Shown here: piece after piece, positions 5,931 through 58,197 of the stretch
Numbering within the stretch: the stretch's first letter is position 1
Layout of the letters: each line of letters begins with the position of its first letter
Assembly (NCBI GenBank): GCA_003697085.1
Contig: RFFU01000074.1
Span: 17,562 to 81,561, forward strand
Source: Candidatus Hydrogenedentota bacterium
Lineage (GTDB): Bacteria > UBA8481 > J006
Length of the DNA stretch: 64,000 bases
Direction of reading: 5' to 3'
The notes under the pieces: generated by a model
Database searches by the model: none
Seen by the model: the letters and a program-made list of their open reading frames with translations, nothing else
Told to the model about the DNA's origin: nothing
Made by a program: the position numbers and the translations under genes

Positions 5931-6487
5931 GAGAATTCCACGAAATGAATGGAAACCGAATCAATGGATCGACGGGATTTTCCCAACACGGATTTCCTTC
6001 TCATCCTCCCGGCGATGAGGGTAGCAAGCCGCCAGGGGGCGGGCAACCGATAAAGCGCCGGAAGGAATGCGGCGTAAAGTCGGTCCCTTGTGTCAATCCT
6101 GTTCTTCATTCCATCGAGTCCCCGTCTCATCTTCGCGGAGCCCTTCGTGGAGGAGGCCGGCCGGGTTCTCTCCCCCGGTGTCATTCCGAGCGAGGCGGAG
6201 CGAAGCAACGCCGACGAGGAATCCCCCATGAGTGCCATCCAGCGCATAGCGCGGGGTTCTTACCTGCGGAAATTCGCTTCATAGAGCGGCCAACCCTGGG
6301 AACGCAGGCATCCTGCCTGCATGGAAGGGATGGAACGTAGACTTTTCAGTCCACGCGAGTGAAACGCGGACTCTCCCGTCCGGGGAACGACGCGGCAAAG
6401 TTCGGCACAAATGCCCCCTCTTTGCCTCGCAACCGCGGAACCGCGGGGTTTGTTGCGAAAAGAACACCTCCCTCTTATACTTGATTT

Positions 6488-7474
6488 ATGTATCAAAAAC
6501 AGCGGATCGCGCTGGTTATTCCGGCTCACAACGAAGAGAAACTCATCGGAGATACGTTGCGGGGGGTTCCGGAACTTGTGGACGATATCTACGTAATTGA
6601 CGACGGTTCCACGGACGCGACCTCGGAATGCGCAAGGAAAGTCGGAGACCGCCGGGTCGTGGTCATTCGGAAGGAGAAGAACGAGGGAGTGGGAGCTGCG
6701 ATCGTTACGGGCTACAAGGTTGCCTTTGAGAGAGGCGCCGATATCGCCGTCGTGGTTGGTGGCGATAACCAGATGGACCTGGCGGAGATCGAGAATTTTC
6801 TTCGACCGATCATCGAGGGAGCGGCGGATTACACGAAAGGCAATCGGTTTCTCGATCCCTCCGGGACTTTCGAAAGAATGCCGACCGTCCGGCTCTTCGG
6901 AAATGCCTTGATTTCGGCGATGTGTAAATTGGCTTCCGGTTATTTCAAAGTTTATGATGCGGTGGACGGTTACACGGCGCTGTCGAGATATGGATTCGAG
7001 CAAGTTCGATGGAAGAAGGTCTGGAAGGGATATGGATATCCTTTGGACTTTCTCATTCGTCTCAATACTGCAGGACTTCGGGTAATGGATGTGCCGCGAC
7101 GCGCAATTTACCTTTCCGGGGTCCGACAATCCCAGATTCACGGTTTCTCGTATGCAATTCACGTGTTCCCGATGCTTCTGCGGGGTTTCTTTCGGCGACT
7201 GCTTTACAAATATATTCTTCGAGATTTCCATCCGCTCGTCTTCTTTTATTTGCTGGGGCTCTTCCTGGTTCCGGCGGGATTCGTTTTTGGCCTCTACCTC
7301 GTTTGGCAGCAGGCAAGCGGGATCGGCGTCTCCGGCCCCCGTGCCGTTTTGTGCGCCTTGGCGATCTTGATAGGAGTGCAATCCTTCTTCTTCGCCATCG
7401 CTTTCGAAATCCTGCATCAAGAATCCCCCGGAAACCGACGCCAAGAAGGTCGTTCGAAGCGACAATCGTTATGA
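6488..7474 (+). CDS. Glycosyltransferase family 2 with C-terminal TM helices (polyprenyl-phosphate sugar transferase / DPM-synthase-like)
   Basis: IALVIPAHNEEKLIGDTL...IYVIDDGSTDAT... (GT2 DxD context). The C-terminal ~90 aa are hydrophobic (2 TM). The gene is co-directional and only 137 nt upstream of the first precursor peptide gene. Confidence 0.8.
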   Translation: MYQKQRIALVIPAHNEEKLIGDTLRGVPELVDDIYVIDDGSTDATSECARKVGDRRVVVIRKEKNEGVGAAIVTGYKVAFERGADIAVVVGGDNQMDLAEIENFLRPIIEGAADYTKGNRFLDPSGTFERMPTVRLFGNALISAMCKLASGYFKVYDAVDGYTALSRYGFEQVRWKKVWKGYGYPLDFLIRLNTAGLRVMDVPRRAIYLSGVRQSQIHGFSYAIHVFPMLLRGFFRRLLYKYILRDFHPLVFFYLLGLFLVPAGFVFGLYLVWQQASGIGVSGPRAVLCALAILIGVQSFFFAIAFEILHQESPGNRRQEGRSKRQSL

Positions 7475-7573
7475 GAAAACGTTTTGAGAAAATCTTTCGT
7501 AAAAAAAATCACCGACTTCACCCCTTGCGAATCTTTTTCGATCCGGCTTTATTTTTCGATAGAGAGAAGAAAC

Positions 7574-7611
7574 GATTCTCCGCAATCGGGGAGAAAGGAG
7601 AGGTGAAAACG
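7574..7611 (+). promoter_or_regulatory. Conserved 5' leader with stem-loop plus Shine-Dalgarno (GGAGAGG) in front of precursor gene 1
   Basis: gattctccgcaatcggggagaaaGGAGAGGtgaaaacg. The palindrome TCTCC-gcaatcgg-GGAGA sits immediately 5' of the RBS. A near-identical copy precedes gene 2 at 7791..7828. Confidence 0.5.
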
Positions 7612-7758
7612 ATGGCGGAAAAGGAAGCTGAGAAGGTTGAGTCGGATTCCGGGAAGGAGCCGGAGAGGAAAGAGGAGGAGGCGCTTTCCGAGGAGGAGAT
7701 GCGGAAGGTGACGGGGGGACGACTCTTTGGAAATTCGATCGCCGGGCGGGTGCTATGA
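7612..7758 (+). CDS. Short precursor peptide with a double-glycine leader (48 aa: 36-aa leader + 12-aa core RLFGNSIAGRVL)
   Basis: MAEKEAEKVESDSGKEPERKEEEALSEEEMRKVTGG|RLFGNSIAGRVL. The LSxxEMxxVxGG motif matches the consensus recognised by C39 peptidase-ABC exporters. Strong RBS 7 nt upstream. Paralogous leader in the next gene. In the ORF track this is the in-frame tail of the spurious 7009..7758 ORF. Confidence 0.75.
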   Translation: MAEKEAEKVESDSGKEPERKEEEALSEEEMRKVTGGRLFGNSIAGRVL

Positions 7759-7790
7759 CTCGAGTGCTCTTCTTAAATGAGGGCGGAAAT

Positions 7791-7828
7791 GATTCCCCGC
7801 AGTCGGGGAGAAAGGAGAGGTGAAAAGG
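7791..7828 (+). promoter_or_regulatory. Second copy of the conserved 5' leader (hairpin CCCCG-cagt-CGGGG plus GGAGAGG RBS)
   Basis: gattccccgcagtcggggagaaaGGAGAGGtgaaaagg is 34/38 identical to 7574..7611. Confidence 0.5.
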
Positions 7829-8515
7829 ATGGCGGAAAAGGAAGACGGGAAGGCAAAAGCCGACAAAGAGAAGGAACCGGAAAGAAAACCGGAGGAACCC
7901 CTTTCGGAGGAGGAGATGAAGGATGTGGCGGGAGGGTTTATTCCCACTCCGGCCACTTTCGGGAATCCCCTTTCGTCCCGGATGGCGTCGAGATTGCGTC
8001 GGCGCGGCGCGGTCGGTCCGGTCGATCCCGAGGAGGCGGTCTCACGCGGTCCGGTCGATCCCGAACAAAGCCGGCGTCCCGACGATCCGAAACACCCGTG
8101 GCACCTTTGCTTCGGCCCGGAGACGCTGGTTCCAACGCGGAAGGGCTATCAGCCTATTTCTGGGATCGCAGTCGGTGACGAGATCGTCAGTGTCACCTTC
8201 GACGGAACCTTGTTCGTCGATCGGGTCGAAAAGCTGGACGTTCACCACGGGGAGATTTCCGTGATCGAACTTTCGTTGGACGACGACGTGATTCTCGTCA
8301 CTCCTGACCATAAGGTCTGGTCGGGCGAGAAATGGATCCGAGCCGCCGACTCGATCTATGTTTCCCGGACGAAGGTGGGAAGAATCGTTCCGGCGGTCTA
8401 TAACCTTCGAACCACCACGGGAACATACCTGGTCGGATACAGCGGACTGCTCGTTTCAGGTGGGCGGGTGGAAGACCTGCATTCCGAGGATCCGGTGGCG
8501 GAGGTTGCTCGGTAG
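7829..8515 (+). CDS. Precursor protein of 228 aa: double-glycine leader (36 aa), 57-aa core, and a C-terminal Hedgehog/intein-type Hint autoprocessing domain
   Basis: MAEKEDGKAKADKEKEPERKPEEPLSEEEMKDVAGG|FIPTPATFGNPLSSRMASRLRRRGAVGPVDPEEAVSRGPVDPEQSRRPDDPKHPWHL|CFGPETLVPTRKGYQPISGIAVGDEIVSV...ILVTPDHKVWS...VPAVYNLRTTTGTYLVGYSGLLVSGG. Hint block A begins with Cys (codon 8108..8110; compare CFTPES in Hedgehog). Block B is T-x-x-H (VTPDHKV). Block F/G-like VYNL..TGTYLV is present, but there is no terminal His-Asn. The track ORF starts at an in-frame GTG at 7820; the ATG at 7829 with an RBS matches gene 1. Confidence 0.75.
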   Translation: MAEKEDGKAKADKEKEPERKPEEPLSEEEMKDVAGGFIPTPATFGNPLSSRMASRLRRRGAVGPVDPEEAVSRGPVDPEQSRRPDDPKHPWHLCFGPETLVPTRKGYQPISGIAVGDEIVSVTFDGTLFVDRVEKLDVHHGEISVIELSLDDDVILVTPDHKVWSGEKWIRAADSIYVSRTKVGRIVPAVYNLRTTTGTYLVGYSGLLVSGGRVEDLHSEDPVAEVAR

Positions 8516-11129: not shown

Positions 11130-11590
11130 TGCGTGGAGCGCGGATTCACCAGTCTGCGGATGGCCGAACCGCTCTGCACAGGTTGGAGAACCTGCGGCCC
11201 ATCCTTGCAGGCAAGATGCGTGCGCTCCGAGGGAGCGTAGACTCTCCAGTCTGCGAATTGCTAATTCGCCCTCCGTGGAAGGGGCTGGTTAGCGCTGGTG
11301 GGGGATTCCTCGTCGGCGTCGCTTCGCGCCGCCTCTCTCGGAATGACACAAGGGGGGAGCGAAGCGACACACTGTTGTCATCCCGAGTTCGCCTCAAGGC
11401 GAACGACGGATCTCCCCAACGCGGTATTCCGCATTGCGAACCGATCGGTGCCTGTGGGGGATTCCTCGGCGCTAATGCGCCTCGGACTGACAGGCCGATC
11501 CGGCTCCATGTTCGCCGTGTTACGGAGCGCGGAGACTCCTGTCTGCGAATTCAGCGATCCGTCGCTCGCCGCCGACCGCACCTGTGCATT
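11130..11590. repeat. Composite intergenic repeat element (module A in reverse orientation plus two module B copies)
   Basis: 11180-11245 caggttggagaacctgcggcccatccttgcaggcaagatgcgtgcgctcc is the reverse complement of module A. 11296-11345 and 11455-11480 carry gtgggggattcctcg...ctcggaatgaca (module B). Confidence 0.7.
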
Positions 11591-14309: not shown

Positions 14310-14660
14310 CCCCCCTGTCCTTCCGAGGAGGCCGAAGGCCAACGAGGAATCCCCCGCGGGAGCGAAACCGGCCCCCTGGAAGTATGGCGAAAAACGGGCA
14401 CCGTTTGTCGGATCGTGTCCGTCCACTCCGGCGCGAAACCCCGCATGGGATCGGGACGGGCGAAAGGTGACCCTCTGCGAACCCGTTTTTGCAGGCAAGA
14501 TGCCTGCCTGTCGGCAGGCAGGCCCGCGCTCCCAGGACACGCTTCCCATTCCCTTTTCGTTTCCCTTCCCCATTCCCTTTTTTTTGCCCTTGCCTTTGCC
14601 CTTGCCCTTCCCGCGTGATACTCCGTGGAGGGGATTCCTCAATCGCCTTACGGCGATTTT
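14310..14660. repeat. Composite intergenic repeat element (modules B, A and C in reverse orientation)
   Basis: 14320-14345 cgaggaatccccc (module B). 14488-14545 gcaggcaagatgcctgcctgtcggcaggcaggcccgcgctcccagga (module A). 14545-14620 ttcccattcccttttcgtttcccttccccattcccttttttttgcccttgcctttgcccttgcccttccc (module C, pyrimidine strand). Confidence 0.7.
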
Positions 14661-14875
14661 CGGAATGATAAAAGACGCTGTCCTTCCGGGGATGCCGCAG
14701 TCCCGGTGAGGCATCCTCGATGAGGAGGGGCTGCCGACGGCTCGCTTCTCGTCCCCACCTGTCTTTGGGTCTGCGCCCCCGGCAGGAGACAGCCGGATGC
14801 CCCTCTGGATGGCTCACTATGTCCCCGTGTACTTCTGAAACTGTCAAAATGGAAGAATGACACCTTTTTCTTTGT

Positions 14876-15501: not shown

Positions 15502-16746
15502 ATGGTCGAATATCGCAAGGCGGCGCTCGATAAACTTGCTTCCCCCGAGCAACTCGACCGTCTCATTACGGTCACCGGTTCCCGTAGTTGGCTCGCTCTG
15601 GGCTCCATCTGTTTTCTTCTTCTCCTGATCCTCGTTTGGAGTGTCGTCGGGCGGATCCCCGTCACCGTCTCGGGACGCGGAATCCTGATCCGGGAGGGGG
15701 GGTTGGTTGAGATCGAGAGTCTGGGGACGGGATTAATTTCGGAGCTCCTGGTGGAGGAAGGGGATCACGTGGAGCCGGGCCAGCTGGTCGCTCGGATCCG
15801 ACAACCGACGCTCGTAACGGAGATCGAACAAGCGCGGGATCGGGTGCAGGAGCTCGAGGTGCAGCGGGAACGGACTTCGAAGCTAGAGTCGGAACGTGTC
15901 CGGCTGGGGGCCGCCGCGCTCGACCAACAGGAGGCGGAATTGCGAGGAACGATCCGCACCTCTCGGGAACGTGTTGCGTGGTTGGAGAAGCGGGTGGAGG
16001 CCTATCGCGATGCTGTTCGCGAGGGGCTGATCACGGAGGAGGAGTTGCGGCGGGTGATGAAGGAACGGGCGAGCGAGCGGGAGGTGATCGCGCGGGCCGA
16101 ATCCCGTCTCAAGAAGATCGCGTCGGATCGCCAAGCGCTGGAGACCGAGCGGGAGCGAAATCTTCTTGCGATCGACAAACAGCTCAGCGACGCCCGGCGG
16201 ACGCTGGCGGCTTTGGAGTCGCGGCTTCGCGAGGAAGGGCAGGTGTTTTCTCCGCACCGGGGCCGGGTCGTGGAGATCAAGGTCGAGCAAGGAGCGATTG
16301 TGACGAGGAACGCGGCCCTGATGAGTCTCGAGGCGGAAACGGGCCCGCTGGTCGCCGAGGTTTTCATTCCGGTCGAGGCGAAGAAGATACGCCGTGGGAT
16401 GGCGGCGCGGATCGCTCCCGCCACGGTGAAAAAGGAAGAGTACGGGATGATTGTCGGGCGCGTGGACGGTGTCTCGGCGCTTCCCGCCACGCGGGAAGGG
16501 ATGATGCATCTTTTGAAGAACGAATTGTTGGTCAAAGAACTGGCTTCGCGCGGCGCCCCCTTCCGTGTCACGTTGTCGCTCGAGGAGGATTCGGCGAGTT
16601 TCAGCGGTTTCCGATGGACCTCCTCGCGCGGGCCGAGAGTGCGGATCGAAAGCGGGATGCTCTGCGAGGGACGGATCGTCGTGGAGAAGAAGGCGCCGAT
16701 CCGCTTTCTTATTCCGGCGCTCAAGTCCTTCTTCGGCATAACGTAA
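15502..16746 (+). CDS. HlyD-family membrane fusion protein (bacteriocin-type / NHLM-type secretion adaptor)
   Basis: N-terminal cytoplasmic stretch, single TM (WLALGSICFLLLLILVWSVV), then long coiled-coil and beta-barrel hairpin regions typical of type I secretion MFPs. 6 nt downstream of the cNMP-binding gene. Confidence 0.8.
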   Translation: MVEYRKAALDKLASPEQLDRLITVTGSRSWLALGSICFLLLLILVWSVVGRIPVTVSGRGILIREGGLVEIESLGTGLISELLVEEGDHVEPGQLVARIRQPTLVTEIEQARDRVQELEVQRERTSKLESERVRLGAAALDQQEAELRGTIRTSRERVAWLEKRVEAYRDAVREGLITEEELRRVMKERASEREVIARAESRLKKIASDRQALETERERNLLAIDKQLSDARRTLAALESRLREEGQVFSPHRGRVVEIKVEQGAIVTRNAALMSLEAETGPLVAEVFIPVEAKKIRRGMAARIAPATVKKEEYGMIVGRVDGVSALPATREGMMHLLKNELLVKELASRGAPFRVTLSLEEDSASFSGFRWTSSRGPRVRIESGMLCEGRIVVEKKAPIRFLIPALKSFFGIT

Positions 16747-16757
16747 CTCGGAGAACG

Positions 16758-18962
16758 ATGGCTGTCGCCGCCGCGGAAGGTATCAAACCGTCTTCGGGAA
16801 AACCGCGGTTCCGTCGTGTCCGAACGCCGACGGTTCTTCAGATGGAGGCGGTGGAGTGCGGCGCGGCATCGCTGGCGATTATTCTCGAGTATTACGGCCG
16901 CGTGGTTCCGCTCGAGGAACTTCGCGTCGCATGCGGGGTGACGCGGGACGGAAGCAACGCCTTTCATTTGATCTCGGCTGCGCGGGAGTACGGATTCGAA
17001 GCCCACGGATACCGAAAGGACATTCCCCACCTCTACAACATCAAACCGCCCTTCATCATCTTCTGGAACTTCAACCATTTTTTGGTCGTCGAGGGATTGG
17101 CCAAGGATCGCGTTTTTCTCAACGATCCCGCGATGGGACCGCGCGTCGTTCCGATGGACGAATTCAACGAGTCCTACACCGGCGTTGTTCTGACCTTTGA
17201 ACCGACGCCGCGCTTCAGGAGAGGGGGACGCCGTCCGAGCCTGTCAGCGGCGGTCTGGAACCGCGTACGCCACTCTTCCGAAGGCATCGCCTACGCCGCT
17301 GTGGCGGCCGTCGCGCTCGTCGGCCCCGGATTGGCGGTTCCCGCCTTTTCGCGGATCTTCATCGATGACATTCTCATCGGCGGAATGCACGACTGGATCC
17401 GTCCCGTCCTGCTCGGTTTGGCGATCACTGGGTTTTTTCGCGTCTTTCTTACCTTTCTCCAGTCCCATTCTCTTCTTCGGCTCGAAACGAAACTTTCGAT
17501 CACCCAGACCGGTCGCTTTTTGCACCATATCCTTCATCTTCCCGTCTCGTTCTACCAGCAGCGTTACGGCGGAGAAATCAGCAACCGAGTCGGTTTCAAT
17601 TCGGACATCGCCCGCATCCTTTCGAACCGTCTCGCCGGAACGATCCTGGACCTTTTCATGACTGTCTTTTATGGAACGGTTCTCTTTCTGCTTTCTCCGG
17701 TGTTGATGCTGATTGCGGTTCTGGGAGTGGCCGCGAATGCCGTTACGGCTCGGACGATGCATCGGACCCTGACCGACGAGAACCTCCGTCTTCAGCAAGA
17801 GGCCGGAGCGACTTTGTCCGCGGCGATGTCCGGCGTGGCCTCGATCGAGACGCTGAAGGCGACGGGGAGCGAATCGGACTTCTTCGCGAACTGGGCGGGG
17901 CATCACGCGAAATACACGGTGACGATGCAAAACCTGAGTCTCAAAAGTGCTCTCTATTCCTCCCTCTCGACCCTCGTGAATTCCCTTTCGGACGTGGCGA
18001 TTCTGGGAGCCGGGGCCCTTCTGATTATGAACGGCCGCATCACGATGGGAACCTTTGTCGCCTTTCACGCGCTCTCCGCCTCCTTTGCGGGTCCGGTGAC
18101 GCGGATCATCAATCTCGCGACGGTGATTCAAGCCTTGCGCGCGCGCCTTGTCCGTCTCGACGACGTGCTCAATCACAAACACGCGCCGGACCTGCGGGTC
18201 GCGGAATCGACGCCGGTCGTTGCAGAAGAGGAAGAGAAACTTTCGGGACATCTCGAGATCCGCAATCTCACCTTCGGCTATTCGCGTTTCGATCCGCCGT
18301 TGATCGAGAATTTTTCGATGACGATCGCTCCGGGCGGGCGCGTGGCTTTGGTGGGGGCATCGGGATGCGGGAAATCGACATTGGCGAAACTGATCACCGG
18401 ATTGTACGAGCCGTGGGAGGGTGAGATTTATTTCGACGGACGTCCGCGAAAGGCGATCCCGCGTTCCGTGCTTACGAGCTCCGTTGCGATGGTGGATCAA
18501 GAGATTTCACTCTTTTCCGGAACCATTCGCGAGAACATTACACTTTGGGACGAGACGATTCCGGATATCGAAGTGGTGCGGGCGGCCAAGGATGCGGCGA
18601 TTCACTCCGAGATCACAGCGCGCGCGGGGGGATATGACGCGGAGTTGGAGGAGGGAGGAGCGAATCTTTCCGGCGGTCAACGCCAGAGGCTGGAGATCGC
18701 CCGGGCGCTCGTGACGAATCCTCGCCTGCTGATTCTGGACGAGGCGACCAGCGCTCTCGATCCCGTGACCGAGAAGGAGATCGATCGCAATCTGCGGGTG
18801 CGCGGTTGTACCTGCGTGATCGTCGCCCATCGGCTTTCGACGATTCGCGACGCGGACGAGATCATCGTCCTTGAACGCGGCCGGGTGGTTCAAAGGGGGA
18901 CGCACGAGGAATTGATCGCCGATCCGGACGCGCCGTATGCGCGATTGGTAAAGGCTCAATGA
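16758..18962 (+). CDS. Peptidase C39 domain-containing ABC transporter (double-glycine leader cleaving, bacteriocin exporter, peptidase/permease/ATPase)
   Basis: N-terminal C39 domain with catalytic Cys in MEAVECGAASLAIIL and His in FNHFLVVEG. Six-TM permease. C-terminal NBD with Walker A GASGCGKST, signature LSGGQRQRLEIARAL and Walker B LLILDEATSALD. The ATG at 16758 is used; the track ORF's upstream extension overlaps hlyD and is spurious. Confidence 0.88.
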   Translation: MAVAAAEGIKPSSGKPRFRRVRTPTVLQMEAVECGAASLAIILEYYGRVVPLEELRVACGVTRDGSNAFHLISAAREYGFEAHGYRKDIPHLYNIKPPFIIFWNFNHFLVVEGLAKDRVFLNDPAMGPRVVPMDEFNESYTGVVLTFEPTPRFRRGGRRPSLSAAVWNRVRHSSEGIAYAAVAAVALVGPGLAVPAFSRIFIDDILIGGMHDWIRPVLLGLAITGFFRVFLTFLQSHSLLRLETKLSITQTGRFLHHILHLPVSFYQQRYGGEISNRVGFNSDIARILSNRLAGTILDLFMTVFYGTVLFLLSPVLMLIAVLGVAANAVTARTMHRTLTDENLRLQQEAGATLSAAMSGVASIETLKATGSESDFFANWAGHHAKYTVTMQNLSLKSALYSSLSTLVNSLSDVAILGAGALLIMNGRITMGTFVAFHALSASFAGPVTRIINLATVIQALRARLVRLDDVLNHKHAPDLRVAESTPVVAEEEEKLSGHLEIRNLTFGYSRFDPPLIENFSMTIAPGGRVALVGASGCGKSTLAKLITGLYEPWEGEIYFDGRPRKAIPRSVLTSSVAMVDQEISLFSGTIRENITLWDETIPDIEVVRAAKDAAIHSEITARAGGYDAELEEGGANLSGGQRQRLEIARALVTNPRLLILDEATSALDPVTEKEIDRNLRVRGCTCVIVAHRLSTIRDADEIIVLERGRVVQRGTHEELIADPDAPYARLVKAQ

Positions 18963-21877
18963 CGGCGCGCGATCTGCTCGCGTCTCTCGCTCGGCTCGGT
19001 CCAGAACGGGATGTGAGCGGGAAGGAGACGTTCTACGTTCAGGGAGCCGAACGCGCGTGGGTCCTGACGAAAGGCGTTGTCGATGTCTTCGCGGTTATGC
19101 TCGAGGACGAGCGGCCCATCGGCCCGCGACATTACCTCTTCAGCGCCTCGCCGGGAATCATTCTCTTCGGTGTCGATCTTCTCCGCTACCACAAGCGTTG
19201 TGCTCTGTTGGCGGTCGGAGTTCCGGGAACGCGTGTTGTTTCCTTCGGCATCGCGGATTTGGTCGAGACGGCCCGGCGAAGTGGAACGCTGGAGGCGCTG
19301 GCGAGGCAGATTGAGGATTTTTCTGGAAAGGTAGGGGCGCTCTTCACCGCTCGTGAGCGGCCACCGTTCGATGAATTTCTCGCCGTGGGAGAGGAACGAG
19401 AGGTTCCGGCGGGTCGTGTTCTCGGAACGGAGCGCGGAATTACTTGGGTCCACGTGATCGGGGGGAAGGTCCGGCTCTGTGGTTTCGAGGATCTCGTCGT
19501 GGAGGCCGACGGCACCGCCGTTCCTCTCGCCCCGGGGCTTTGGCTCGAAACACTTATTGCGTCACATCTCGAGGTGATCGACAGCCGCGCGTTGCTTGAA
19601 CGCGATCCGCGCCTGAAGGCGTTGGGAAATTTGCAAGCCGTATATGTCCGATGGATCGAGGACCGCATCGCGGCGAAGCGGGCCGAGGAGCGGGAACGAA
19701 TTTCCCGGAGGCGTGAGCGGGATCAGGCGATTCTTGCCAAGGCTCTGGAGGATCTTAGCAGTGTTCTTGTCGGAAAAGGGCGCGCCGTGCCGGAGCACGA
19801 TCGTCCTCTGTTGGCCGCCTTGAATCGGATCGGCGCCGCGCTCGATTTGGATTTTCACCTTCCTTCGGAGTGGGAGTTGAGCCGGTACGGCGCCGCGCCT
19901 CTCGAGGCCATCTGCCGCCGTTCGCGGATCCGCCACCGGCGGGTGGCCCTTTACGGAGATTGGTATCGCCGGGACAACGGGCCGTTATTGGTCTTTCGAG
20001 ACAAGGAGCACGGGGCAACGCCCGTAGCCGCGGTTCCTCTTTCGGAGTCGCAGTACGAATACTTTGACCCTGTCACGGGAGCGACGGGGATTCTGACGCG
20101 GGATGTTGCCGCCACGCTCGATCCCTTCGGCGTGATGTTTTATCCTCCGCTTCCCGCAAAACCGCTTCACGTCTTTCAACTACTCAGACACGGAAGCCGG
20201 TTCGTTTCGAAGGACCTCCGGCGGGTGTTGGGGTTGAGTTTGGCGGCCGGCGCGCTTTCGCTGGCGTTGCCGTGGGCGACAGGGCTCCTTTTCAGCGACG
20301 TGATTCCTTCTTCCGAGCGACCGCTTCTTCTGCAGGTTGTTTTAGCGCTGTTGATCGCTTCTTCCGTCCAGACGCTCTTCCATTTCGTTCGCACGATTGC
20401 GCTGACGCGGATGCGGGCACGGTGGGGCGAGACGGTTCAGGCGGCGCTGTGGGACCGGATCGCTTCCTTGCCTCCGCGATTCTTCCGCCGCTTCACCGTC
20501 GGGGATCTCGTGGATCGCGCCGAGGTCGTGGATCACCTGCGCGAGGAACTCAGCGGCGCCGGGCTGACGGCCATCATCGGCGGGTTGATGTCGCTGATGC
20601 AATTTATTTTGATGTTCTACTATAGCCGGGTTCTCGCTCTGGGAGCCTTGGGAATCACGGCGCTCTTTGCTCTCGTGACCGGAGGCCTTGCCGTGGGAAT
20701 GCTGCGGTACGAGAGGGAGATGCAGAGGATCGCGGGGCGCCTCTCGGGTTTTCTTTACCAGGTGATCACCGGCATTGCCAAGATTCGGGTGGCGGGGGCC
20801 GAGGAACGGGCGTTTGCGGAATGGGCGCGACGGTTCCGCCGCGAACGCCTTCTCCGCTTCCGGGCCGGCTCCTACCAGAACATCATTCTCACCGTCAATG
20901 CCGGGCTGCCGATCCTTTCGACGATTCTCGTCTTTCTCCTTGTGCGTTATGCCGCGTTGCTCCCGGAGGGAGCCTGGATCAGTGTCGGGGATTTCATTGC
21001 CTTCAACGCCGCGATGACCGTCTTCCTCAACTCCGCGCTTTCGCTTACCGACACGGCGGTCAACCTTCTCAACCTCGTCCCGATGTTCGAACGCGTCGAG
21101 CCGATTCTTGTGACGGAGCCGGAAGCGCGGGAGGATCGGCCGGATCCGGGGCGCATCACCGGTTCTGTCGAGATGAGTCACGTTTCGTTTCGGTATCATC
21201 CCGACGGGCCGCTTGTTCTCGACGATGTTTCGTGGTCGGCGGCGCCCGGGGAGTTCGTTGCGTTGGTCGGGCCGTCCGGGGGAGGCAAATCGACGATCAT
21301 CCGGTTGTTGCTGGGATTCGAAATCCCGGAGACGGGAAACATCTATTTCGATGGGAGGGATGTATCGGCGGTGGACGTCACGGCGTTGCGGCGTCAGATC
21401 GGAGTCGTTCTCCAGAACAGCCGGCTCCGCCCCGGCTCGATCTTCGACAATATCGTCGGTTCCTCGAATCTTACCCTCGATGATGCCTGGCGTGTGGCCG
21501 AGCAGGCGGGTTTGAAGGAGGATATCGAGGCGATGCCGATGGGAATGCACACGAACATTTCCGAGGGAGGGACGACGTTTTCGGGGGGGCAGCGACAACG
21601 AATTCTGATCGCCCGCGCGCTGATTCATCAACCGCGAATCCTGATCTTCGACGAAGCGACGAGTGCCCTGGACAACACGACGCAGAAAGTCGTCTCCGAC
21701 AGTCTCGACCGTCTCAATGCAACGCGGATCGTGATCGCCCATCGCCTTTCGACGATCCGAAATGCCGACAGAATCTATGTAATCGAGAAGGGAAGGATTG
21801 TACAACGGGGAAACTACGAGGAATTGATGACGGAGGGAGGTCTATTCACCGACCTCGCGCGCCGTCAACTCGCTTAG
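18959..21877 (+). CDS. ABC transporter ATP-binding/permease with N-terminal cyclic nucleotide-binding-like domain (second component of the NHLM-type exporter)
   Basis: 972 aa. The N-terminal ~150 aa are cNMP-binding-like (ETFYVQGAERAWVLTKGVVDVF). Then a degenerate peptidase-like region, a 6-TM permease, and an NBD (GPSGGGKST; FSGGQRQRILIARAL; ILIFDEATSALD). ATGA start/stop overlap with the preceding gene. Confidence 0.85.
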   Translation: MTARDLLASLARLGPERDVSGKETFYVQGAERAWVLTKGVVDVFAVMLEDERPIGPRHYLFSASPGIILFGVDLLRYHKRCALLAVGVPGTRVVSFGIADLVETARRSGTLEALARQIEDFSGKVGALFTARERPPFDEFLAVGEEREVPAGRVLGTERGITWVHVIGGKVRLCGFEDLVVEADGTAVPLAPGLWLETLIASHLEVIDSRALLERDPRLKALGNLQAVYVRWIEDRIAAKRAEERERISRRRERDQAILAKALEDLSSVLVGKGRAVPEHDRPLLAALNRIGAALDLDFHLPSEWELSRYGAAPLEAICRRSRIRHRRVALYGDWYRRDNGPLLVFRDKEHGATPVAAVPLSESQYEYFDPVTGATGILTRDVAATLDPFGVMFYPPLPAKPLHVFQLLRHGSRFVSKDLRRVLGLSLAAGALSLALPWATGLLFSDVIPSSERPLLLQVVLALLIASSVQTLFHFVRTIALTRMRARWGETVQAALWDRIASLPPRFFRRFTVGDLVDRAEVVDHLREELSGAGLTAIIGGLMSLMQFILMFYYSRVLALGALGITALFALVTGGLAVGMLRYEREMQRIAGRLSGFLYQVITGIAKIRVAGAEERAFAEWARRFRRERLLRFRAGSYQNIILTVNAGLPILSTILVFLLVRYAALLPEGAWISVGDFIAFNAAMTVFLNSALSLTDTAVNLLNLVPMFERVEPILVTEPEAREDRPDPGRITGSVEMSHVSFRYHPDGPLVLDDVSWSAAPGEFVALVGPSGGGKSTIIRLLLGFEIPETGNIYFDGRDVSAVDVTALRRQIGVVLQNSRLRPGSIFDNIVGSSNLTLDDAWRVAEQAGLKEDIEAMPMGMHTNISEGGTTFSGGQRQRILIARALIHQPRILIFDEATSALDNTTQKVVSDSLDRLNATRIVIAHRLSTIRNADRIYVIEKGRIVQRGNYEELMTEGGLFTDLARRQLA

Positions 21878-28169: not shown

Positions 28170-28597
28170 AGGGCGGGGGGGCGATGGATTCTCCTGATTT
28201 ATCTTTGTTCCGAGGCTTCTCATCGGAACGGCGGAGACAGGCGAAATCCGTTGCGTTTGGTTGCGGAGCCGAGGTGGAGGAACGACGAGCCTAGTAGAGA
28301 AGGGGAACAGCCGAAGAGGATTACGGGTGCAAGGCAAATTTTGGGCAAGGTCAAATTTAGCCAAACAGGTATTCCTGGGAGCGCAGGCCCGCCTGCTGGC
28401 AGGCAGGCATCTTGCCTCTGCAATGACGGACTCGGAGAAGGTTACCTTTCGGCCGCCCCGATCCTATGCAGGGGGTTCGCCTAGGGAGTGGTCTGATACG
28501 ATTCGGCGAAAGCTTCCCGTTTTTCGCCATGCACCTGAGAATTACAAAGAGAAAGAGATAGAATATTCGGGGAAGTTCTTGTAATCTCGGCTCGAGC

Positions 28598-28672
28598 GGC
28601 GGCGTAGCTCAGAGGTAGAGCAGAGGTCTCATAAGCCTCGTGTCGGCGGTTCGATTCCGCCCGCCGCTACCA
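28598..28672 (+). tRNA. tRNA-Met (anticodon CAT; elongator type, or tRNA-Ile2 if lysidinylated), CCA encoded
   Basis: 75-nt cloverleaf GGCGGCG-TA-GCTC-AGAGGTA-GAGC-A-GAGGT-CTCATAA-GCCTC-GTGTC-GGCGG-TTCGATT-CCGCC-CGCCGCT-A-CCA. The anticodon stem lacks the three G-C pairs of initiators. Confidence 0.85.
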
Positions 28673-29406: not shown

Positions 29407-29408
29407 CG

Positions 29409-29482
29409 TAGCGGGGGGAGGATTTGAACCTCCGACCTCTGGGTTATGAGCCCAGCGAGCTACCAGACTGCTCTACCCCGCG
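29409..29482 (-). tRNA. Initiator tRNA-fMet (anticodon CAT)
   Basis: The reverse complement folds as CGCGGGG-TA-GAGC-AGTCTGGTA-GCTC-G-CTGGG-CTCATAA-CCCAG-AGGTC-GGAGG-TTCAAAT-CCTCC-CCCCGCT-A. Initiator hallmarks: 1:72 mismatch (C:U), A11:U24, and three consecutive G-C pairs (29-31:39-41) in the anticodon stem. CCA is not encoded. Confidence 0.8.
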
Positions 29483-29499: not shown

Positions 29500-30060
29500 A
29501 TTCACGTTTCTCGAAATTTCAAGACGAATTTTTGGACGAGTTGGGAATGCACATCTACAGTACGAGACACCTGGAGGGGCCGCTGCCGCGTTGTGTCCTT
29601 CCGACGCGCGTCTTCGATGTCAATCCGAGGCACGCATCTTCTGTCATTCCGATGCGCGTCTCTTCTATCATTCCGGGGCGCGTCTTTTCTGTCATTCCGA
29701 GGCGCTTTGGCGCCGAGGAATCCCCTTCCCGTGGTATCCCGCGTTTTGTCATTCCGAGCGCCAGCGAGGAATCCCCTCGGCGCGGTATCCCGCGGGAAGG
29801 GCAAGGGCAAAAGCAAGGCCAAGAATAAGGGAATGGGGAAGGGAAAGGAAAAAGGGAATGGGAAGCGTGTCCTGGTAGCGCAGGCAATCTGCTTGCAAGG
29901 ATGGGGCGCAGGTTCTCCAACCTGCAGGGCCGATCGGCACTCGTGGGGGATTCCTCGTCGGGCTTCGCCCTCCTCGGAATGACAAGTATGGTGTCGGATT
30001 GCGCCTGCCTGCCGGCAGGGCCTCCTCAGAATGACACGCCTGGGGGGCGGGATCGGCCAA
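29500..30060. repeat. Large composite repeat element (module B x4-5, module C, module A, module B)
   Basis: 29590-29790 has repeated (t)gtcattccga(g/t)gcgc units ending in gcgaggaatcccc. 29800-29870 is the purine-rich module C (gggaagggcaagggcaaaagcaaggccaagaataagggaatggggaaggg). 29868-29930 is module A (gcgcaggcaatctgcttgcaaggatggggcgcaggttctccaacctgcagg). 29942-29990 is module B. Confidence 0.75.
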
Positions 30061-30293
30061 ACGCAGACTGGAGAGTCCGCGCTCTATAACTCGGCGAAAA
30101 TCGAGTGTAGGTTATCCAGCTCCATTGGGAGCGAACGTTTTCTTGACAGTACCGCCGTTCGACGTGGATCGGGAACGATTCTTGCTACCATCATCGCCGG
30201 TCGATTTTGAATCGCCCGATCGCCGCTGTCTGATTTCCCGAAACGGCTTTCGGACGTCGCTGAAAATGACTCTCTACGCACGGTGACTGTCAG

Positions 30294-38927: not shown

Positions 38928-39835
38928 AGCGATTCGTCGTTGGACTCCTTCTGGCCCTGTTGGCGGGAGGGATCGTCTTGACGAGCACGGCGGCGGAAGA
39001 CACGACGTCTGTATCTCGACAAGGGCCGGCGAAAGAGGCGGCGGTCGGTCCGGAAGTTCTCTTCCGGAAGGCGAATGCCTTGTACAAAGAAGGCGATTAT
39101 GCCGGCGCCGCCGAACTCTACCGGCGCGTGGTGGAGGCCGATCCCGGCAACCCGGTCGCTCTCTTCAATCTCGGCAATACCGCCTACCGCCTCGGACATC
39201 TCGGCCGCGCCGTCGTCGCGTATCGAAAAGCCCTTCTGGTCGATCCCGATTTCACGGATGCAAGAAAGAATCTCGCCTTTGTCCGGAAACGGAGAACCGA
39301 CAAGATCGAAATTCCCACGCCTTCACTGATCGCAAAACTCCTCGCTCGCGCCCAGACAAACGCAGGAACGGGTCTTTTGATCACGAACGGACTCTTCGCC
39401 TTAGTGCTGGCGCTTCTCTTCCGCTTCTCTCCCTTGCCCGGTGATGCCGAACCGGAATCGGGAGCGGTCGAGGGCGAGGAATCCGAGGAGAGCGGCGAAG
39501 GGAGGCGAAGTCGGCGCGGTCGAGCACTGCGATTCGCGGCGATCTTTTTGGGCGTGCTGTTTCTGGGGAATCTCCTTCTTGTCGTTGCAAGCGGAACGCG
39601 GAAGGAGCGCGCGGAGGCGGTGGTGGTCGCAAAAGAAGTGCCGGTCTATGCGGAGCCGAAAGAGACGGCGCCGGTATTGACGGTCCATGACGGGCTGGAA
39701 GTCGTGATCCGGCGTTCGAGCGGCAGTTATGTCGAGATCGGGATCGCGGACGCGCCGCTGGGCTGGGTCCGGAGCGCCGTTCTCTATGTCCTTCCGAAGA
39801 GGGAGCGGAACTTTGATCAGCGTGCCGCAGGTTGA
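38924..39835 (+). CDS. batE: BatE-like TPR plus SH3b-domain protein
   Basis: Signal peptide. TPR motifs (ANALYKEGDYAGAAELYRRVVEADPGNPVALFNLGNTAYRLGHLGRAVVAYRKALLVDPDF). TM. C-terminal SH3b-like region (VVVAKEVPVYAEPKETAPVLTVHDGLEVVIRRSSGSYVEIGIADAPLGWVRSAVL). Confidence 0.75.
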   Translation: MKRFVVGLLLALLAGGIVLTSTAAEDTTSVSRQGPAKEAAVGPEVLFRKANALYKEGDYAGAAELYRRVVEADPGNPVALFNLGNTAYRLGHLGRAVVAYRKALLVDPDFTDARKNLAFVRKRRTDKIEIPTPSLIAKLLARAQTNAGTGLLITNGLFALVLALLFRFSPLPGDAEPESGAVEGEESEESGEGRRSRRGRALRFAAIFLGVLFLGNLLLVVASGTRKERAEAVVVAKEVPVYAEPKETAPVLTVHDGLEVVIRRSSGSYVEIGIADAPLGWVRSAVLYVLPKRERNFDQRAAG

Positions 39836-39839
39836 GGGC

Positions 39840-40420
39840 CAGGCCTGTCTGCTCTGAGTGCCCGCCAATAGCGCAATTCCTGGGAGCGCAGGCATCATGC
39901 CTGCAAGAATGGGGCGCGGGTTCTCCAACCTGCGGGGCTGATCGCCGTCTGCGTTGTCATTCCGAGCGCCAGCGAGGAATCCCCTTCGCGCGGTATCCCG
40001 AGGGAAGGGCAAGGGCAAAGGCAAGGGCAAGAAAAAGGGAATGGGGAAGGGGAACGAAAAAGGAGACAGGAAGCGCTTCCTGGGAACGCACGCCTGCCTG
40101 CAGGAAGTCCCGCAAGGAGCGCCATTCCCGGTAGCGCAGGCATCTTGCCTGTAAGAATGGGGCGCAGGGTCTCCAAGCTGCGGGGCGCATCGATACCACC
40201 GTTGTCATTACTGAGCCCCTCGCATTCGCTCGGGACAGGCTCCGCGAGGAATTCCCCCAGGTGGTTCCCGTCGCGGGGGCCGATGGGCGCTCGTGGGGGA
40301 TTCCTCGTCGGCCTCCGGCTGCCTCGGAATGACACCACGGGTGGGCGGACCGGCCGAACGCTCCTCACCCCTACCTGTTCTGCACCTCACGTCCTCCTTT
40401 GTCGGCCCGCTCCCGGTGGC
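39840..40420. repeat. Large composite repeat element (module A, B, C, A, A, B)
   Basis: 39868-39935 module A (gggagcgcaggcatcatgcctgcaagaatggggcgcgggttctccaacctgcgg). 39950-39995 module B (tgtcattccgagcgccagcgaggaatcccc). 39995-40060 module C (gggaagggcaagggcaaaggcaagggcaagaaaaagggaatggggaagggg). 40080-40185 two more module A copies. 40288-40335 module B (gtgggggattcctcgtcggcctccggctgcctcggaatgaca). Confidence 0.75.
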
Positions 40421-40865
40421 TCACCTGATCCGACCTAAGATGTGAACTTAATCACCTTGCCCCATGAGTTCCCGAGGCCGGATAATTTAATTGAATTTCG
40501 GAGGAAGTGGTTTTCGGGATTCCGATGGATTCCGCGCAGTTTTCTATATAACTCGTTCCACTCCGCTCATGCGGGGCCCGACCCTCGGGCCCCGCGCTTT
40601 TCTCTGGTTCTCTGCACTTTCCCCTCTCTCTTCTTCGTGCTTCGATCGGGAAGGAAGCATGGGAGACATCAGAACGCAAGACATCAGAACGCAGAAACCG
40701 TGGCGCGAGTGGAAACACCGCCCCGGGAGCGCAGGCATTCTGCCTGTATCCCCGACACGCCGCTGGGCCGAGGGAATCCCGAGTCGAGGGATCGGATAGA
40801 ATCTGCCAAGCCGTTGCGTTCCCTTGGGGGAAAAGCCTTGAGGAAGTATTAAAAGCAGACCATTC

Positions 40866-41255
40866 TCAGGGTTCGAGCAGTTGTAGTTCCCGGAAGTACT
40901 TCCGGAAGAACCCGCGATCACGCGTGCAGAGCCGGTCGGCATGGTGGAGGGCGTGGGCTCCAATCATGAAGTCCGAAAGAATTCGCGTTCTCTTTCCCCC
41001 GGAGCGAAGGTGACGCGTCCAAAGCGCACCAGCCCTGGCGAGCGCGTCCGGTGACGAAGCGACGAAGGTCACACCCAGGCGCGCGAGAATCTCGTCGACC
41101 TCTTGTCGGGATCTCACCGCGCATAACTCCGAGTAGACAACCTCCCCGAGGACCAGGCCGCCCTCCGCGTGGGCTCGCCGAACCGCCTCTCTCGATGCGA
41201 CGTTCGAGGCCGTCACGATGTCGATGAGGATGTTTGTGTCGAGGGCAGTGATCAA
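40866..41255 (-). CDS. vapC: PIN-domain ribonuclease toxin VapC
   Basis: (M)ITALDTNILIDIV... places the first conserved Asp of the PIN fold at residue 5. ...LSDFMIGAHAL (conserved D). The TTG start at 41255 overlaps the antitoxin stop (TTGA). The track ORF extends to the ATG at 41321, inside the antitoxin gene. Confidence 0.7.
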   Translation of the reverse strand: MITALDTNILIDIVTASNVASREAVRRAHAEGGLVLGEVVYSELCAVRSRQEVDEILARLGVTFVASSPDALARAGALWTRHLRSGGKRTRILSDFMIGAHALHHADRLCTRDRGFFRKYFRELQLLEP

Positions 41256-41491
41256 CGTCCGCGGATCGCCTCGATGAACTCGTCCGTAGACATCTTCCCC
41301 GGTAGCCCCTTTTCCGCCCACGCTCCCCAGACGTGATCAACAGGATCCAGGTCGCCTTTTACCAACACCAGACGCCCCTTCTCCTCGCGAAACGTGATGC
41401 TCGTGCCGGGCCGGAGACCGAAGCGATCCCTGAGCGGCTTCGGGATTACTACCTGCCCCTTGGTGTTGACCTGATATGTCTTACTCATCAA
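41252..41491 (-). CDS. vapB: AbrB/MazE/SpoVT-family antitoxin (VapB-like)
   Basis: KGQVVIPKPLRDRFGLRPGTSITF is the swapped-hairpin beta-barrel DNA-binding motif. 79 aa, immediately upstream of and overlapping vapC. Confidence 0.7.
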   Translation of the reverse strand: MMSKTYQVNTKGQVVIPKPLRDRFGLRPGTSITFREEKGRLVLVKGDLDPVDHVWGAWAEKGLPGKMSTDEFIEAIRGR

Positions 41492-41794
41492 GTAATATCA
41501 TACTACATAAAAAGTAATCACGTCAATAGGGGAAGCAGATCACAAATCTCCTCTGCGGATTCGAAAATCCGTGCTCCGCTGAGGATAAGATGCCTGCCTG
41601 CCGGCGGACAGGCCTGCGCTCCCGGGAAGGCATGTCTACCGATGATTTAAAAATTTTCCGTTTGATGCGCCGTTGGCTTTCGTGTATCAATTTTTGGATT
41701 TTCCCTGGCATCGATGTGGATTTTTCGTGGTGAGGCATGGCTCACTGATGACCGTGGGGAAGGAACAAAACCGATTCAGCAGGAGAGGAATTCG

Positions 41795-55386: not shown

Positions 55387-55589
55387 GGACTCTCTCCGAA
55401 GAACCGCACCGGCCGCCTCCTGCGCCCGCGTCCTCGTTTTTTAACTCGTTTCGAACTCGTTTTCGTCATTCGTGGGACGGAGTCTAGCCGGGAATCCTTC
55501 CCGGTGGCAAGAAGATTGCGAACGTTTCCGAAGCGGGCATGAGAAATTTTCGGTGAGGAACGTCCCTACGAGCGCGGGTTCTATATGCC

Positions 55590-55990
55590 GGGAACGCCGG
55601 CATCCCTGCCGGCAGAAATGGGGCGCAGGTTCTCCAACCTGCGGAAGCCAAATCGTGCACCCGTAGGGGATTCCTCGTCGGACTGCGCCTGCCTGCCGGC
55701 AGGCAGGCCCGCCTCGGAATGACACTACGTGCGGATCGCCGGTCGCCGCTACGATTGTCGGTCGTGCCAGGAGGGCGACCGGCCGGTCGCCCCTGTGGGA
55801 AGGATGCCCGCGCTCCCAGGTTCCCCTCCTCCCCTTTTTCCTTCTCCCTTTTGCCTTTTTCCTTTTGCCTTCTTCCCGTTCCGTTTTTCGTGATTTCCGT
55901 GTCCGTGGTTTTACTTCCTTCCGCGTCTTCCGTGGTTCTCATTTTTTCCGTGTCCTTCCGCGTGCTCCGTGGTCCTCAGTTTGTGACGAC
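55590..55990. repeat. Composite repeat element (modules A, B, C) plus a CT-rich TTCCG-periodic tract
   Basis: 55592-55660 module A (ggcatccctgccggcagaaatggggcgcaggttctccaacctgcgg). 55665-55735 module B (gtaggggattcctcgtcggactgcgcctgcctgccggcaggcaggcccgcctcggaatgaca). 55810-55880 module C pyrimidine strand. 55880-55980 has repeated ttccgtg/ttccgcg. Confidence 0.7.
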
Positions 55991-57744: not shown

Positions 57745-58197
57745 ACGCTGATCCTATCCGGGAACTTTCCTCTGCGGCAAGCACGGAATCCGATTTTCTT
57801 GGTGACCGGATTGCGCGGATGCGTTCGCTCCGCGTGGCAGTCGGCAACGAGGCGCGGATTCTCAACCCACGGAGGCGAAAAAAGCGCTGGAGAGGCGGAC
57901 GTACCGTTGCGCCCTCCAATGGCCGCCTTCTTTTTTATCCCGGTTCCGATGCCGGCCCCTCGATCAGCCGATGGGGAATAGAGAGACGGGATTCGTGTTG
58001 GATAGCCAAGAGCGTTCGCGCCCTTCTTCCTTTGTTTCCTTTGCCCTGTCTCCTTCCTCCTATTTCCGTGCATTCGGTGTATTCCGGGGTTCTCCTTTTC
58101 CGTTTTCCGTCTCTTCCGCGGTTCCTTTCCGCTCCGTGTGTTCCGGTGTTTCGGGCTTGACCAGCGTTACTTTCGAATTGTAGGTGGGGAGGGGGTT

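Follow-up and report, generated by a model that had tools for sequence, protein, structure and literature searches.

What are the repeated sequences that lie in the intergenic regions of this part of a Candidatus Hydrogenedentota genome, and which enzymes might they serve? The window (64,000 nt of a contig from a metagenome-assembled genome (MAG); nine of its proteins are identical to NCBI entries RMH56960-RMH57004) carries, at 39840-40420 and at further intergenic sites, three recurring sequence modules, A, B and C. A preliminary description had taken these as one lineage-specific mosaic family resembling either REP (repetitive extragenic palindrome) and BIME (bacterial interspersed mosaic element) sequences or miniature inverted-repeat transposable elements (MITEs). 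We find that the region is probably a BIME-like mosaic of two unrelated hairpin classes, each of which is elsewhere the single-stranded DNA (ssDNA) substrate of a small dedicated nuclease. The REP-type module A is linked elsewhere to REP-associated tyrosine transposases (RAYTs) and module B to single-domain GIY-YIG proteins: A and B are different known repeat classes with different partner enzymes, and the idea of one family built from three modules is not upheld.

The repeats are real and lie far above chance. Self-BLAST (39840-40420 against the window, and the window against itself) returned matches at all the intergenic sites that had been listed, with 74-89% identity and E values down to 1e-47, over the spans 412-572, 6168-6329, 11163-11493, 14316-14640, 28372-28530, 29689-30037, 39840-40347, 41587-41628 and 55572-55725. 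Motif counts were likewise far above those in dinucleotide shuffles: the left arm of B (GTCATTCCGAG, at most one mismatch) occurs 16 times in the window against 2.55 expected and the right arm (CGAGGAATCCCC, at most one mismatch) 13 times against 1.41, while the two hairpins of module A, A1 and A2, occur 8 and 6 times against 0 expected for either. Tandem Repeats Finder (TRF) recovered a 51-nt unit (x3.1) at 417-574, a 24-nt unit (x4.5) at 29600-29705 and an AGGGCA hexamer (x5.3) at 40001-40031, and consistent hairpin folds were computed for A1, A2 and B units. A literature search by the repeat sequence strings returned primers and unrelated papers alone.

Module A had been described as a single palindromic unit; hairpins are present, but they are two separate tagged ones, A1 and A2, of 22-25 nt each. 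A1 reads (C)CTGG-GAGC-GCAGGCA.tcn.TGCCTGC-AAG and A2 reads GGGGC-GCAGGTT.ctcc.AACCTGC-GG, on a shared plan of 5' tag (GGAG/GTAG), C, 7-bp stem, 3-4-nt loop and purine tail. Their stems co-vary, both in A1 (GCAGGCA/TGCCTGC, GCGGGCA/TGCCCGC, GCCGGCA/TGCCGGC) and in A2 (GCAGGTT/AACCTGC, GTAGACT/AGTCTGC), with G-T(U) pairs in a few (GTAGACT/AGTCTGC, for example). Variants with the same tag have other stems (GTAGACT/AGTCTGC, GCGGATT/AGTCTGC, GCCGGCA/TGCCGGC) or the inserted palindrome GCCTGCCTGCCGGCAGGCAGGC; GCGGACT-CTCC-AGTCTGC and the palindrome GCCTGCCTGCCGGCAGGCAGGC are further variant hairpins in the window.

Module A consists of REP units. With RAYT-associated REPs and REPINs (REP doublets forming hairpins) it shares tagged stem-loops, co-varying stems, short loops, a purine tail, multiple copies and an intergenic location. 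REPs of the GTAG type are the class recognised, cut and copied by RAYTs, which are HUH/Y1 transposases, and this GTAG-tagged superfamily of REPs or REPINs with their RAYT (TnpA_REP) was reportedly described by Nunvar in 2010. The same system is treated in Bertels & Rainey 2011 (PMC3116915) and Di Nocera 2013 (PMC3733652), and RAYTs cleave and rejoin REPs (PMC6006769).

In other genomes, units identical to A1 form inverted doublets and flank RAYT genes. An A1 pattern scan of metagenome contigs found the unit in at least 120 of them, mostly as inverted doublets. At these loci a perfect-stem detector gave 208 tagged units, compared with 14 for the control; stem sequences were GCGGGCA (101), GCAGGCA (69) and GCGGGCG (10), with loops TCC or TCT. 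Adjacent A1 pairs were inverted, with tags outward, in 45 of 63 cases (median gap 41 nt), which is the REPIN architecture. At one locus, L164, A1 units stand on both flanks of a gene whose protein passes the NCBIfam REP-associated tyrosine transposase model NF047646 (86.1 bits, cutoff 80) and matches Pfam Y1_Tnp. Homologues of this RAYT are often named RayT in the source databases, and their named hosts are Opitutaceae, Luteolibacter, Prosthecobacter and Verrucomicrobiaceae, all of which we take to be Verrucomicrobiota. The homologous RAYT locus L251 has six flanking GGAGC-GCGGGCA.tcc.TGCCCGC units and L252 has flanking A2-like units (GCGGGTT.ttct.AACCCGC and GCGGACA.ttct.TGTCCGC); at L253, also homologous, no flanking A-type units were detected. 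A2 in the form found in the window, module C and the composite elements described below had no matches elsewhere; of module A, the A1 part alone matches. The A1 pattern was also present in 8 IMG/VR viral contigs and B in 5 viral stretches, numbers so low that a phage origin is unlikely. A generic tag-plus-hairpin detector allowing one mismatch did no better than its reversed-sequence control (100 versus 110) and was dropped.

Module B has the form TGTC-ATTCC-GA-(variable stem-loop)-GA-GGAAT-CCCC. The base stem, AT-TCC/GGA-AT, ends in a closing tandem G.A mismatch, and the first base after the palindrome is C. Copies in the window agree in base stem and tandem G.A, each has a distal part of its own (6-37 nt), and the tag is TGTC or a one-base variant in every copy read. 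A scan of 185,579 species genomes (596 Gb) for GTCATTCCGAG-N4..34-CGAGGAATCCCC returned at least 111 stretches, with ~0.5 estimated by chance; the statistics that follow cover the 111 listed genome loci (766 kb), in some cases with the window added. A detector for the B frame counted 237 units in these loci and 0 on reversed sequence. GTC was preceded by T (187 units), C (41), G (7) or A (2); the tail was CCC in 163 of the 237, and adjacent units were in +- arrangement (tags outward) in 58 of 85 pairs. Base-stem pairs, counted in the 111 loci plus the window, were ATTCC/GGAAT (173), ATCCT/AGGAT (22), ATTCT/AGAAT (21), ATCCC/GGGAT (17), ATGTT/AACAT (12), ATTTC/GAAAT (5) and ATGTC/GACAT (4), co-varying subfamilies that all retain GTC-AT-NNN...NNN-AT-C. 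The minimal form is GTCATTCCGAG-CGNAG(T)-CGAGGAATCCCC, with GCGAAGC as the commonest core; GCGNAGC is an unusually stable DNA mini-hairpin.

Among the matches listed, the exact 23 conserved bases of B occur in MAGs labelled with about ten phyla, the hosts being Acidobacteriota (including Thermoanaerobaculia and Terriglobia), Clostridia, Ruminococcus, Oscillospiraceae, Bacteroidales, Saprospiraceae, Kapaibacterium, Chloroflexota (four classes), Udaeobacter, Gemmatimonadales, Alpha- and Deltaproteobacteria and Caldithrix. Modules A and C were essentially absent from the 111 B loci. With B in about ten phyla, A1 in at least 120 metagenome contigs and Verrucomicrobiota names on the homologues of the A1-flanked RAYT, the label ‘lineage-specific’ fails for two of the three modules. 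B-containing elements lie in the same four consecutive intergenic regions of two Acidobacteriota species (genes 87-90% identical), which suggests long vertical persistence.

In its plan, B corresponds to hairpins that have been described from two sides. CGTC REPs (Di Nocera 2013, PMC3733652) often have TGTC as their tag, with 8-9-bp stems that nearly always start with A-T pairs, 4-5-nt loops and short C-rich tails; HH (head–head) dimers are dominant, and these REPs occur in five phyla without an associated transposase, Neisseria dRS3 being CGTC-1. Chenal 2025 (PMC11893778) extended dRS3 to the 28-nt NTS (CGTCATTCCCGCGMAVGCGGGAATCYRG) and described NTS-like SRM hairpins that in many bacteria stand on the flanks of ssnA, a single-domain GIY-YIG gene of 94 aa. 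Ssn proteins cut ssDNA beside the hairpin and modulate transformation in Neisseria; SsnA binds and cuts its hairpin as ssDNA only and does not bind RNA, its cleavage being governed by the 3 nt 5' of the palindrome and its binding by the C after it, and the hairpin loop can be removed, replaced or extended (PMC11893778). B shares with the CGTC REPs and NTS-SRM hairpins a (T/C)GTC tag, a stem starting AT, a C after the palindrome, a C-rich tail, doublets that are mostly inverted with tags outward, and a position flanking 94-111-aa single-domain GIY-YIG genes; its ATTCC...GGAAT core matches that of the NTS (CGTCATTCCCGCG...GCGGGAATC). It retains the SsnA determinants (GTC, AT..AT, C) and varies where SsnA is tolerant: unlike in NTS-SRM, a distal stem-loop (4-37 nt) takes the place of the loop. 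Its hosts (Acidobacteriota, Chloroflexota, Clostridia, Bacteroidota, Hydrogenedentota and others) lie mostly outside the Pseudomonadati emphasised for SRM (PMC11893778). Judged by these features of its sequence, B is a TGTC-tagged hairpin of the CGTC-REP/NTS-SRM class, and would be cleaved by a partner enzyme.

Tandem arrays of the left arm alone (TGTCATTCCGAG plus ~12 nt, period ~24) that end in one complete B were seen in the window (29594-29725) and at L042, L068, L016, L095 and L071; their hosts are Hydrogenedentota, Dehalococcoidia, Oscillospiraceae/Ruminococcus and Acidobacteriaceae. It is in this arm that the GTC required for SsnA cleavage lies.

A candidate for the partner enzyme of B was found beside it. 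A phmmer search of all open reading frames (ORFs) of the 111 B loci and the window, with a self-written generic GIY-YIG consensus as query, gave three GIY-YIG ORFs, the sole ones in the 766 kb of B loci: at L026 (Clostridia), L054 (Thermoanaerobaculia) and L031 (Acidobacteriota). Their proteins match Pfam PF01541 (E 5e-18 to 8e-16) and are 55-64% identical to one another. All three genes touch B units, which lie on either side of those at L026 and L054; a 300-bp segment placed at random in the B loci would be flanked on one side with a probability of 0.083 and on both sides with one of 0.0019. Clustering of the ORFs around the 111 loci gave no recurrent large gene and no recurring transposase, the GIY-YIG gene being the only recurring family. 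At E <= 1e-10 this GIY-YIG family comprises at least 7963 members, and five of them on long contigs, fetched by protein and not by motif (L246-L250), all had B-superfamily hairpins within ~110 bp of the gene, on both sides with tags outward in three of the five; L249 has a perfect inverted pair, and the hairpins of L250 are NTS-like, fully paired versions. In total, 8 of 8 GIY-YIG loci (related loci, outside the window) are hairpin-flanked, 5 of them on both sides. That MAGs labelled with about ten phyla share one exact 23-base B frame, alongside a conserved small GIY-YIG gene, suggests either wide horizontal spread or strong constraint on the enzyme–substrate pair.

In six independent contigs, L031 and L246-L250 (Acidobacteriota where a source is named), a dihydroorotate dehydrogenase gene (PF01180; in L031 judged from the translated C-terminus alone) directly precedes the GIY-YIG gene. 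From this recurring position it seems to be fixed and vertically inherited, like a domesticated gene.

Several observations weigh against assigning the repeats of the window to these two systems. The 64-kb window has no Y1/RAYT ORF and, by phmmer, no GIY-YIG gene. Its A1 tag is GGAG or GGAA in 11 of 13 copies and the canonical GTAG in 2 of 13; the REPs flanking the bona fide RAYT genes of L164 and L251 are likewise GGAG-tagged, and degenerate tags are on record for some REP families. Unlike inverted REPIN doublets, the A units of the window are mostly head-to-tail (+ +) pairs of A1 followed by A2 and once form a 51-nt tandem array. B differs from the NTS in having tandem G.A/A.G at stem positions 6-7 instead of inner C-G pairs, and the published SRM pattern, HGTCWYN(0-2)YYVSBRHN(0-5)WNVSBRGN(0-2)RNCYNB, has 0 matches in the window and 4 in the 766 kb of B loci; this pattern, which does find the NTS, is a search heuristic and not a family definition, and B escapes it through its long inserts and its G.A in place of inner C-G pairs. 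The flanked GIY-YIG proteins resemble Ssn, and their placement in the cd10448/Ssn clade is putative. The check by folding and covariation that had been proposed gave consistent folds and compensatory stems, but single-unit fold energies were modestly better than those of shuffles (z +1.2 to -3.1), and covariation does not distinguish DNA from RNA hairpins. Module C, finally, is accounted for by neither hairpin class.

How the two classes are combined in the window can be read from the following map (coordinates, strand, feature).
417-574, +: three tandem 51-nt module A units (A1 plus degenerate A2), with A1 at 418, 469 and 520 (TRF).
6179-6226, +: B unit, TGTC-ATTCC-GA-(distal stem)-GA-GGAAT-CCCC.
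6299-6384, +: A1 at 6299-6320, then A2'-type hairpins at 6332-6354 and 6361-6384, overlapping the 3' end of ORF 6260-7465(-).
11136-11255, strands mixed: four A-type units, A2'(+) 11136-11158, A2(-) 11176-11197, A1(-) 11207-11228 and A2'(+) 11233-11255.
11301-11547, strands mixed: B/A cluster, B(-) 11301-11348, B(-) 11457-11492 and A2'(+) 11525-11547.
11377 to ~11420, +: B variant (ATCC/GGAT stem), its end read by eye.
14316-14669, -: composite in reverse, with a B variant 14631-14669(-), C ~14540-14615, a long A1 variant 14482-14532(-), a unique stretch and then B 14317-14353(+).
28371-28418, +: long A1 variant, a CCTGGGAGCGC tag followed by the palindrome GCC(C/T)GCCTGC..GCAGGCAGGC.
29594-29689, +: tandem array of four B left arms, period 24 (TRF).
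29690-29725, +: complete B that closes the left-arm array.
29747-29984, +: composite, B(+) 29748-29775, C ~29790-29870, A1 29875-29896, A2 29903-29927 and B(-) 29947-29983.
29999-30084, -: degenerate B with palindromic core (left arm 30025-30035), plus A2' 30062-30084.
39879-39935, +: module A, A1 39883-39904 (GGAGC-GCAGGCA.tca.TGCCTGC) and A2 39911-39935 (GGGGC-GCGGGTT.ctcc.AACCTGC).
39955-39984, +: near-minimal B, TGTCATTCCGAG-CGCCAG-CGAGGAATCCCC, the left end of composite 39956-40333.
39990-40075, +: module C, purine-rich, (AGGGCA)n.
40080-40106, +: degenerate A1-like unit (CTGGGAACGCACGCCTGCCTGCAGG).
40131-40183, +: second module A, A1 40131-40152 with a true GTAG tag and A2 40162-40183.
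40203-40257, +: degenerate B (TGTCATTACTGAG...CGAGGAATTCCC).
40296-40334, -: inverted B, the right end of composite 39956-40333.
40726-40747, +: solitary A1.
41587-41628, -: long A1 variant, palindromic core.
55591-55724, strands mixed: A1(+) 55591-55613, A2(+) 55620-55644 and B(-) 55667-55723, with the GCCTGCCTGCCGGCAGGCAGGC palindrome as distal stem.
55800-55990, -: partial A1(-), then a CT-rich tract, purine-rich on the thrC/lon strand and loosely like C.

The clusters resemble the BIMEs of E. coli in being intergenic, with several REP types in both orientations and other conserved short motifs between them, a pattern present at 11136-11547, 29594-30084 and 39879-40334. Unlike those BIMEs, the window mixes two repeat classes with different presumed enzymes and a purine-rich hexamer tract. 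The earlier view that the repeats are REP/BIME-like and not a CRISPR array stands: their spacing is irregular, no Rfam match was found, and ~30 window ORFs scanned against Pfam included no Cas family. attC sites, K-turns and ribozymes were also rejected as candidates (no GTTRRRY/RYYYAAC boxes, a symmetric internal loop, irregular spacing, no Rfam match).

Three composites of 236-378 bp (39956-40333, 29748-29983 and, on the reverse strand, 14317-14669) align end to end as B(+)-linker-C-A1-(A2)-variable-B(-), with whole modules gained or lost between them. Module C is ~85 nt of purine-rich sequence that includes (AGGGCA)n. A hexamer regex detected such tracts nowhere but in the window and L013 (7659-7760), and a similar one is upstream of B in the syntenic L019. 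A CT-rich tract at 57990-58180, previously called similar to the modules, is weakly so (68-70%) to 55824-55984, but to nothing else. As a separate observation, (AGGGCA)n, or (CTTGCC)n on the other strand, directly adjoins B in the window (39990-40075, 29790-29870, 14540-14615) and in two Acidobacteriota species.

Were the repeats to work as their relatives do, the partner enzymes would be encoded outside the window in the Hydrogenedentota genome and would act when DNA is single-stranded, as during replication, transformation or conjugation. Units might then be spread or maintained by ssDNA cleavage and rejoining, with possible effects on transformation, recombination or mRNA ends, and the composites could be non-autonomous copies of a hairpin–gene–hairpin unit in which the gene was swapped for non-coding modules. 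A wider reading is possible, if rather doubtful: B may be a large unrecognised branch of Ssn/SRM, with a G.A mismatch and an extendable distal stem and missed by the published pattern, together with a GIY-YIG family of at least ~8000 sequence clusters, and the composites may be chimeric non-autonomous elements whose Ssn-type termini carry RAYT-type REPs and purine-rich cargo. If the composites are such chimaeras, two independent ssDNA-hairpin systems would spread each other's substrates. It is possible that the left-arm-only B arrays and the (CTTGCC)n tract beside B, which recur in several phyla, are footprints of enzyme action.

Other explanations were weighed against this mosaic of two hairpin classes. 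We regard it as unlikely that the hairpins work chiefly at the RNA level, as part of the upstream gene's transcript, where they would stabilise 3' ends, serve as terminators or attenuators or give rise to small RNAs, the purine tract of module C being a protein- or ribosome-binding site in the RNA; such a role would be compatible with a DNA-level origin. RNA folds of the units do share the DNA architecture, some stems (such as GTAGACT/AGTCTGC) contain G-T(U) pairs, and the purine-rich tracts fall on the upstream gene's sense strand at 4 of 5 sites, from a reading of the sequence and the ORF map. Where a crude ORF call resolved the context (64 cases), B units lie between divergent genes in 8 cases, convergent in 16 and co-directional in 40, and are thus rarer between divergent genes, as has been reported for REPs (PMC3733652). 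Yet beside co-directional genes the same kind of call gave 24 sense and 16 antisense units, with no strong strand preference; units occur in both orientations inside one cluster, and no Rfam family matches them. The commonest B core, GCGNAGC, is moreover a hairpin of unusual stability as DNA. RNA is not bound by SsnA (PMC11893778). The orientation counts neither support nor exclude an added RNA-level role of the units.

It is very improbable that the composites are classical MITEs, that is, deletion derivatives of a DDE-type insertion sequence with terminal inverted repeats TGTCATTCCGAG / CTCGGAATGACA, moved by cut-and-paste. The MITE-like label does fit their outline: like bacterial MITEs (Correia/NEMIS, RUP, Nezha) they are 0.2-0.4 kb long, non-coding, multi-copy and intergenic with inverted ends, all three (236-378 bp) being bounded by inverted copies of the terminal sequence. 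However, no target-site duplication was seen in the flanks of the three composites (read by eye) and no DDE transposase or DDE parent element was found, so they are not classical MITEs. Each supposed terminal repeat is a complete, autonomous hairpin unit, which is found on its own as well and with compensating changes in its stem; what these termini flank is a GIY-YIG gene of 94-111 aa, not a DDE transposase, and near B in the 111 loci that gene is the sole recurring gene family. Most improbable of all is an artefact, whether a MAG contig mis-joined at low-complexity GC-rich sequence or chance similarity. The window is from a metagenome-assembled genome and an independent short-read assembly breaks at the clusters, but the motif counts are above every shuffle, the same units occur in hundreds of independent assemblies, chromosome-scale contigs included, and the stems have compensatory changes.

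Read as two hairpin classes with separate partner enzymes, the repeats are ordinary in kind, a new example of the REP/BIME and CGTC-REP/SRM classes in a candidate phylum; we know of no earlier report of REP-type or Ssn-type hairpin repeats in Hydrogenedentota. Less ordinary are the B variant missed by the SRM pattern, with its large GIY-YIG family, the C/(CTTGCC)n tracts beside B and the left-arm-only arrays in several phyla. The Ssn family is a potential tool for site-defined ssDNA cutting, for which B units suggest natural substrates with long loop inserts.

The repeat clusters also account for the unusually long intergenic regions of the window and for short-read assembly breaks. Its genes are ordinary chromosomal ones (a MoxR/DUF58/VWA/BatD/TPR operon, Lon, ThrC, Der, glycogen phosphorylase, glycosyltransferases and an NHLP-type exporter), and every cluster sits in a long intergenic region (0.3-1.2 kb) between Pfam-supported ORFs. 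ORFs that overlap the repeats lack the codon-position GC pattern typical of real genes, in agreement with the earlier remark that many ORFs there are spurious; the many small ORFs called within clusters are repeat translations, and a 157-aa ORF spanning the studied region had no match in a protein search. The repeats had also been said never to interrupt ORFs. The clusters are indeed intergenic, but ORF 6260-7465(-), for which Pfam gives no match, runs on through A2' and A1 units in its last ~45 codons (...MQAGCLRSQG...); either the repeat provides its C-terminus or the ORF is not a gene. Rfam 15 at gathering score found 3 tRNAs alone and no tmRNA in the whole window, a scan of 39700-40900 up to E = 10 gave nothing relevant (noise), and Pfam scans of ~30 window ORFs gave no Cas family, no transposase and no nuclease. 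In a Logan short-read assembly of sample SRR7905022, which encodes an identical Der, a 14-kb contig (L112) runs, by gene content, from the phosphorylase gene to lon and ends at the clusters near 41.6 kb and 55.5 kb of the window that flank this gene block, as fits multi-copy repeats.

Further features of the window were seen beside or between the clusters. Two tRNA-Met (CAT) genes in opposite orientation, 28598-28672(+) and 29408-29482(-), bracket a cobalamin adenosyltransferase gene, with a repeat cluster outside each, and a PIN-domain toxin gene (40866-41321, -) adjoins a cluster. Gene 1660-2718(-), with weak EF-hand matches, has internal 51-nt (17-codon) tandem repeats at 1723-2292. The stretch 15502-21877 encodes an NHLP bacteriocin secretion protein and large ABC permease/ATPase export genes (NCBI names; RMH56967, RMH56969). 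Two paralogous stretches with 87% identity lie in tandem at 7560-7725 and 7777-7942, and either one has an ATG and a Shine-Dalgarno-like GGAGAAAGGAGAGG; they read as acidic peptides ending ...LSEEEM(R/K)(K/D)V(T/A)GG, a double-glycine leader, and are probably precursors for the NHLP-type exporter.

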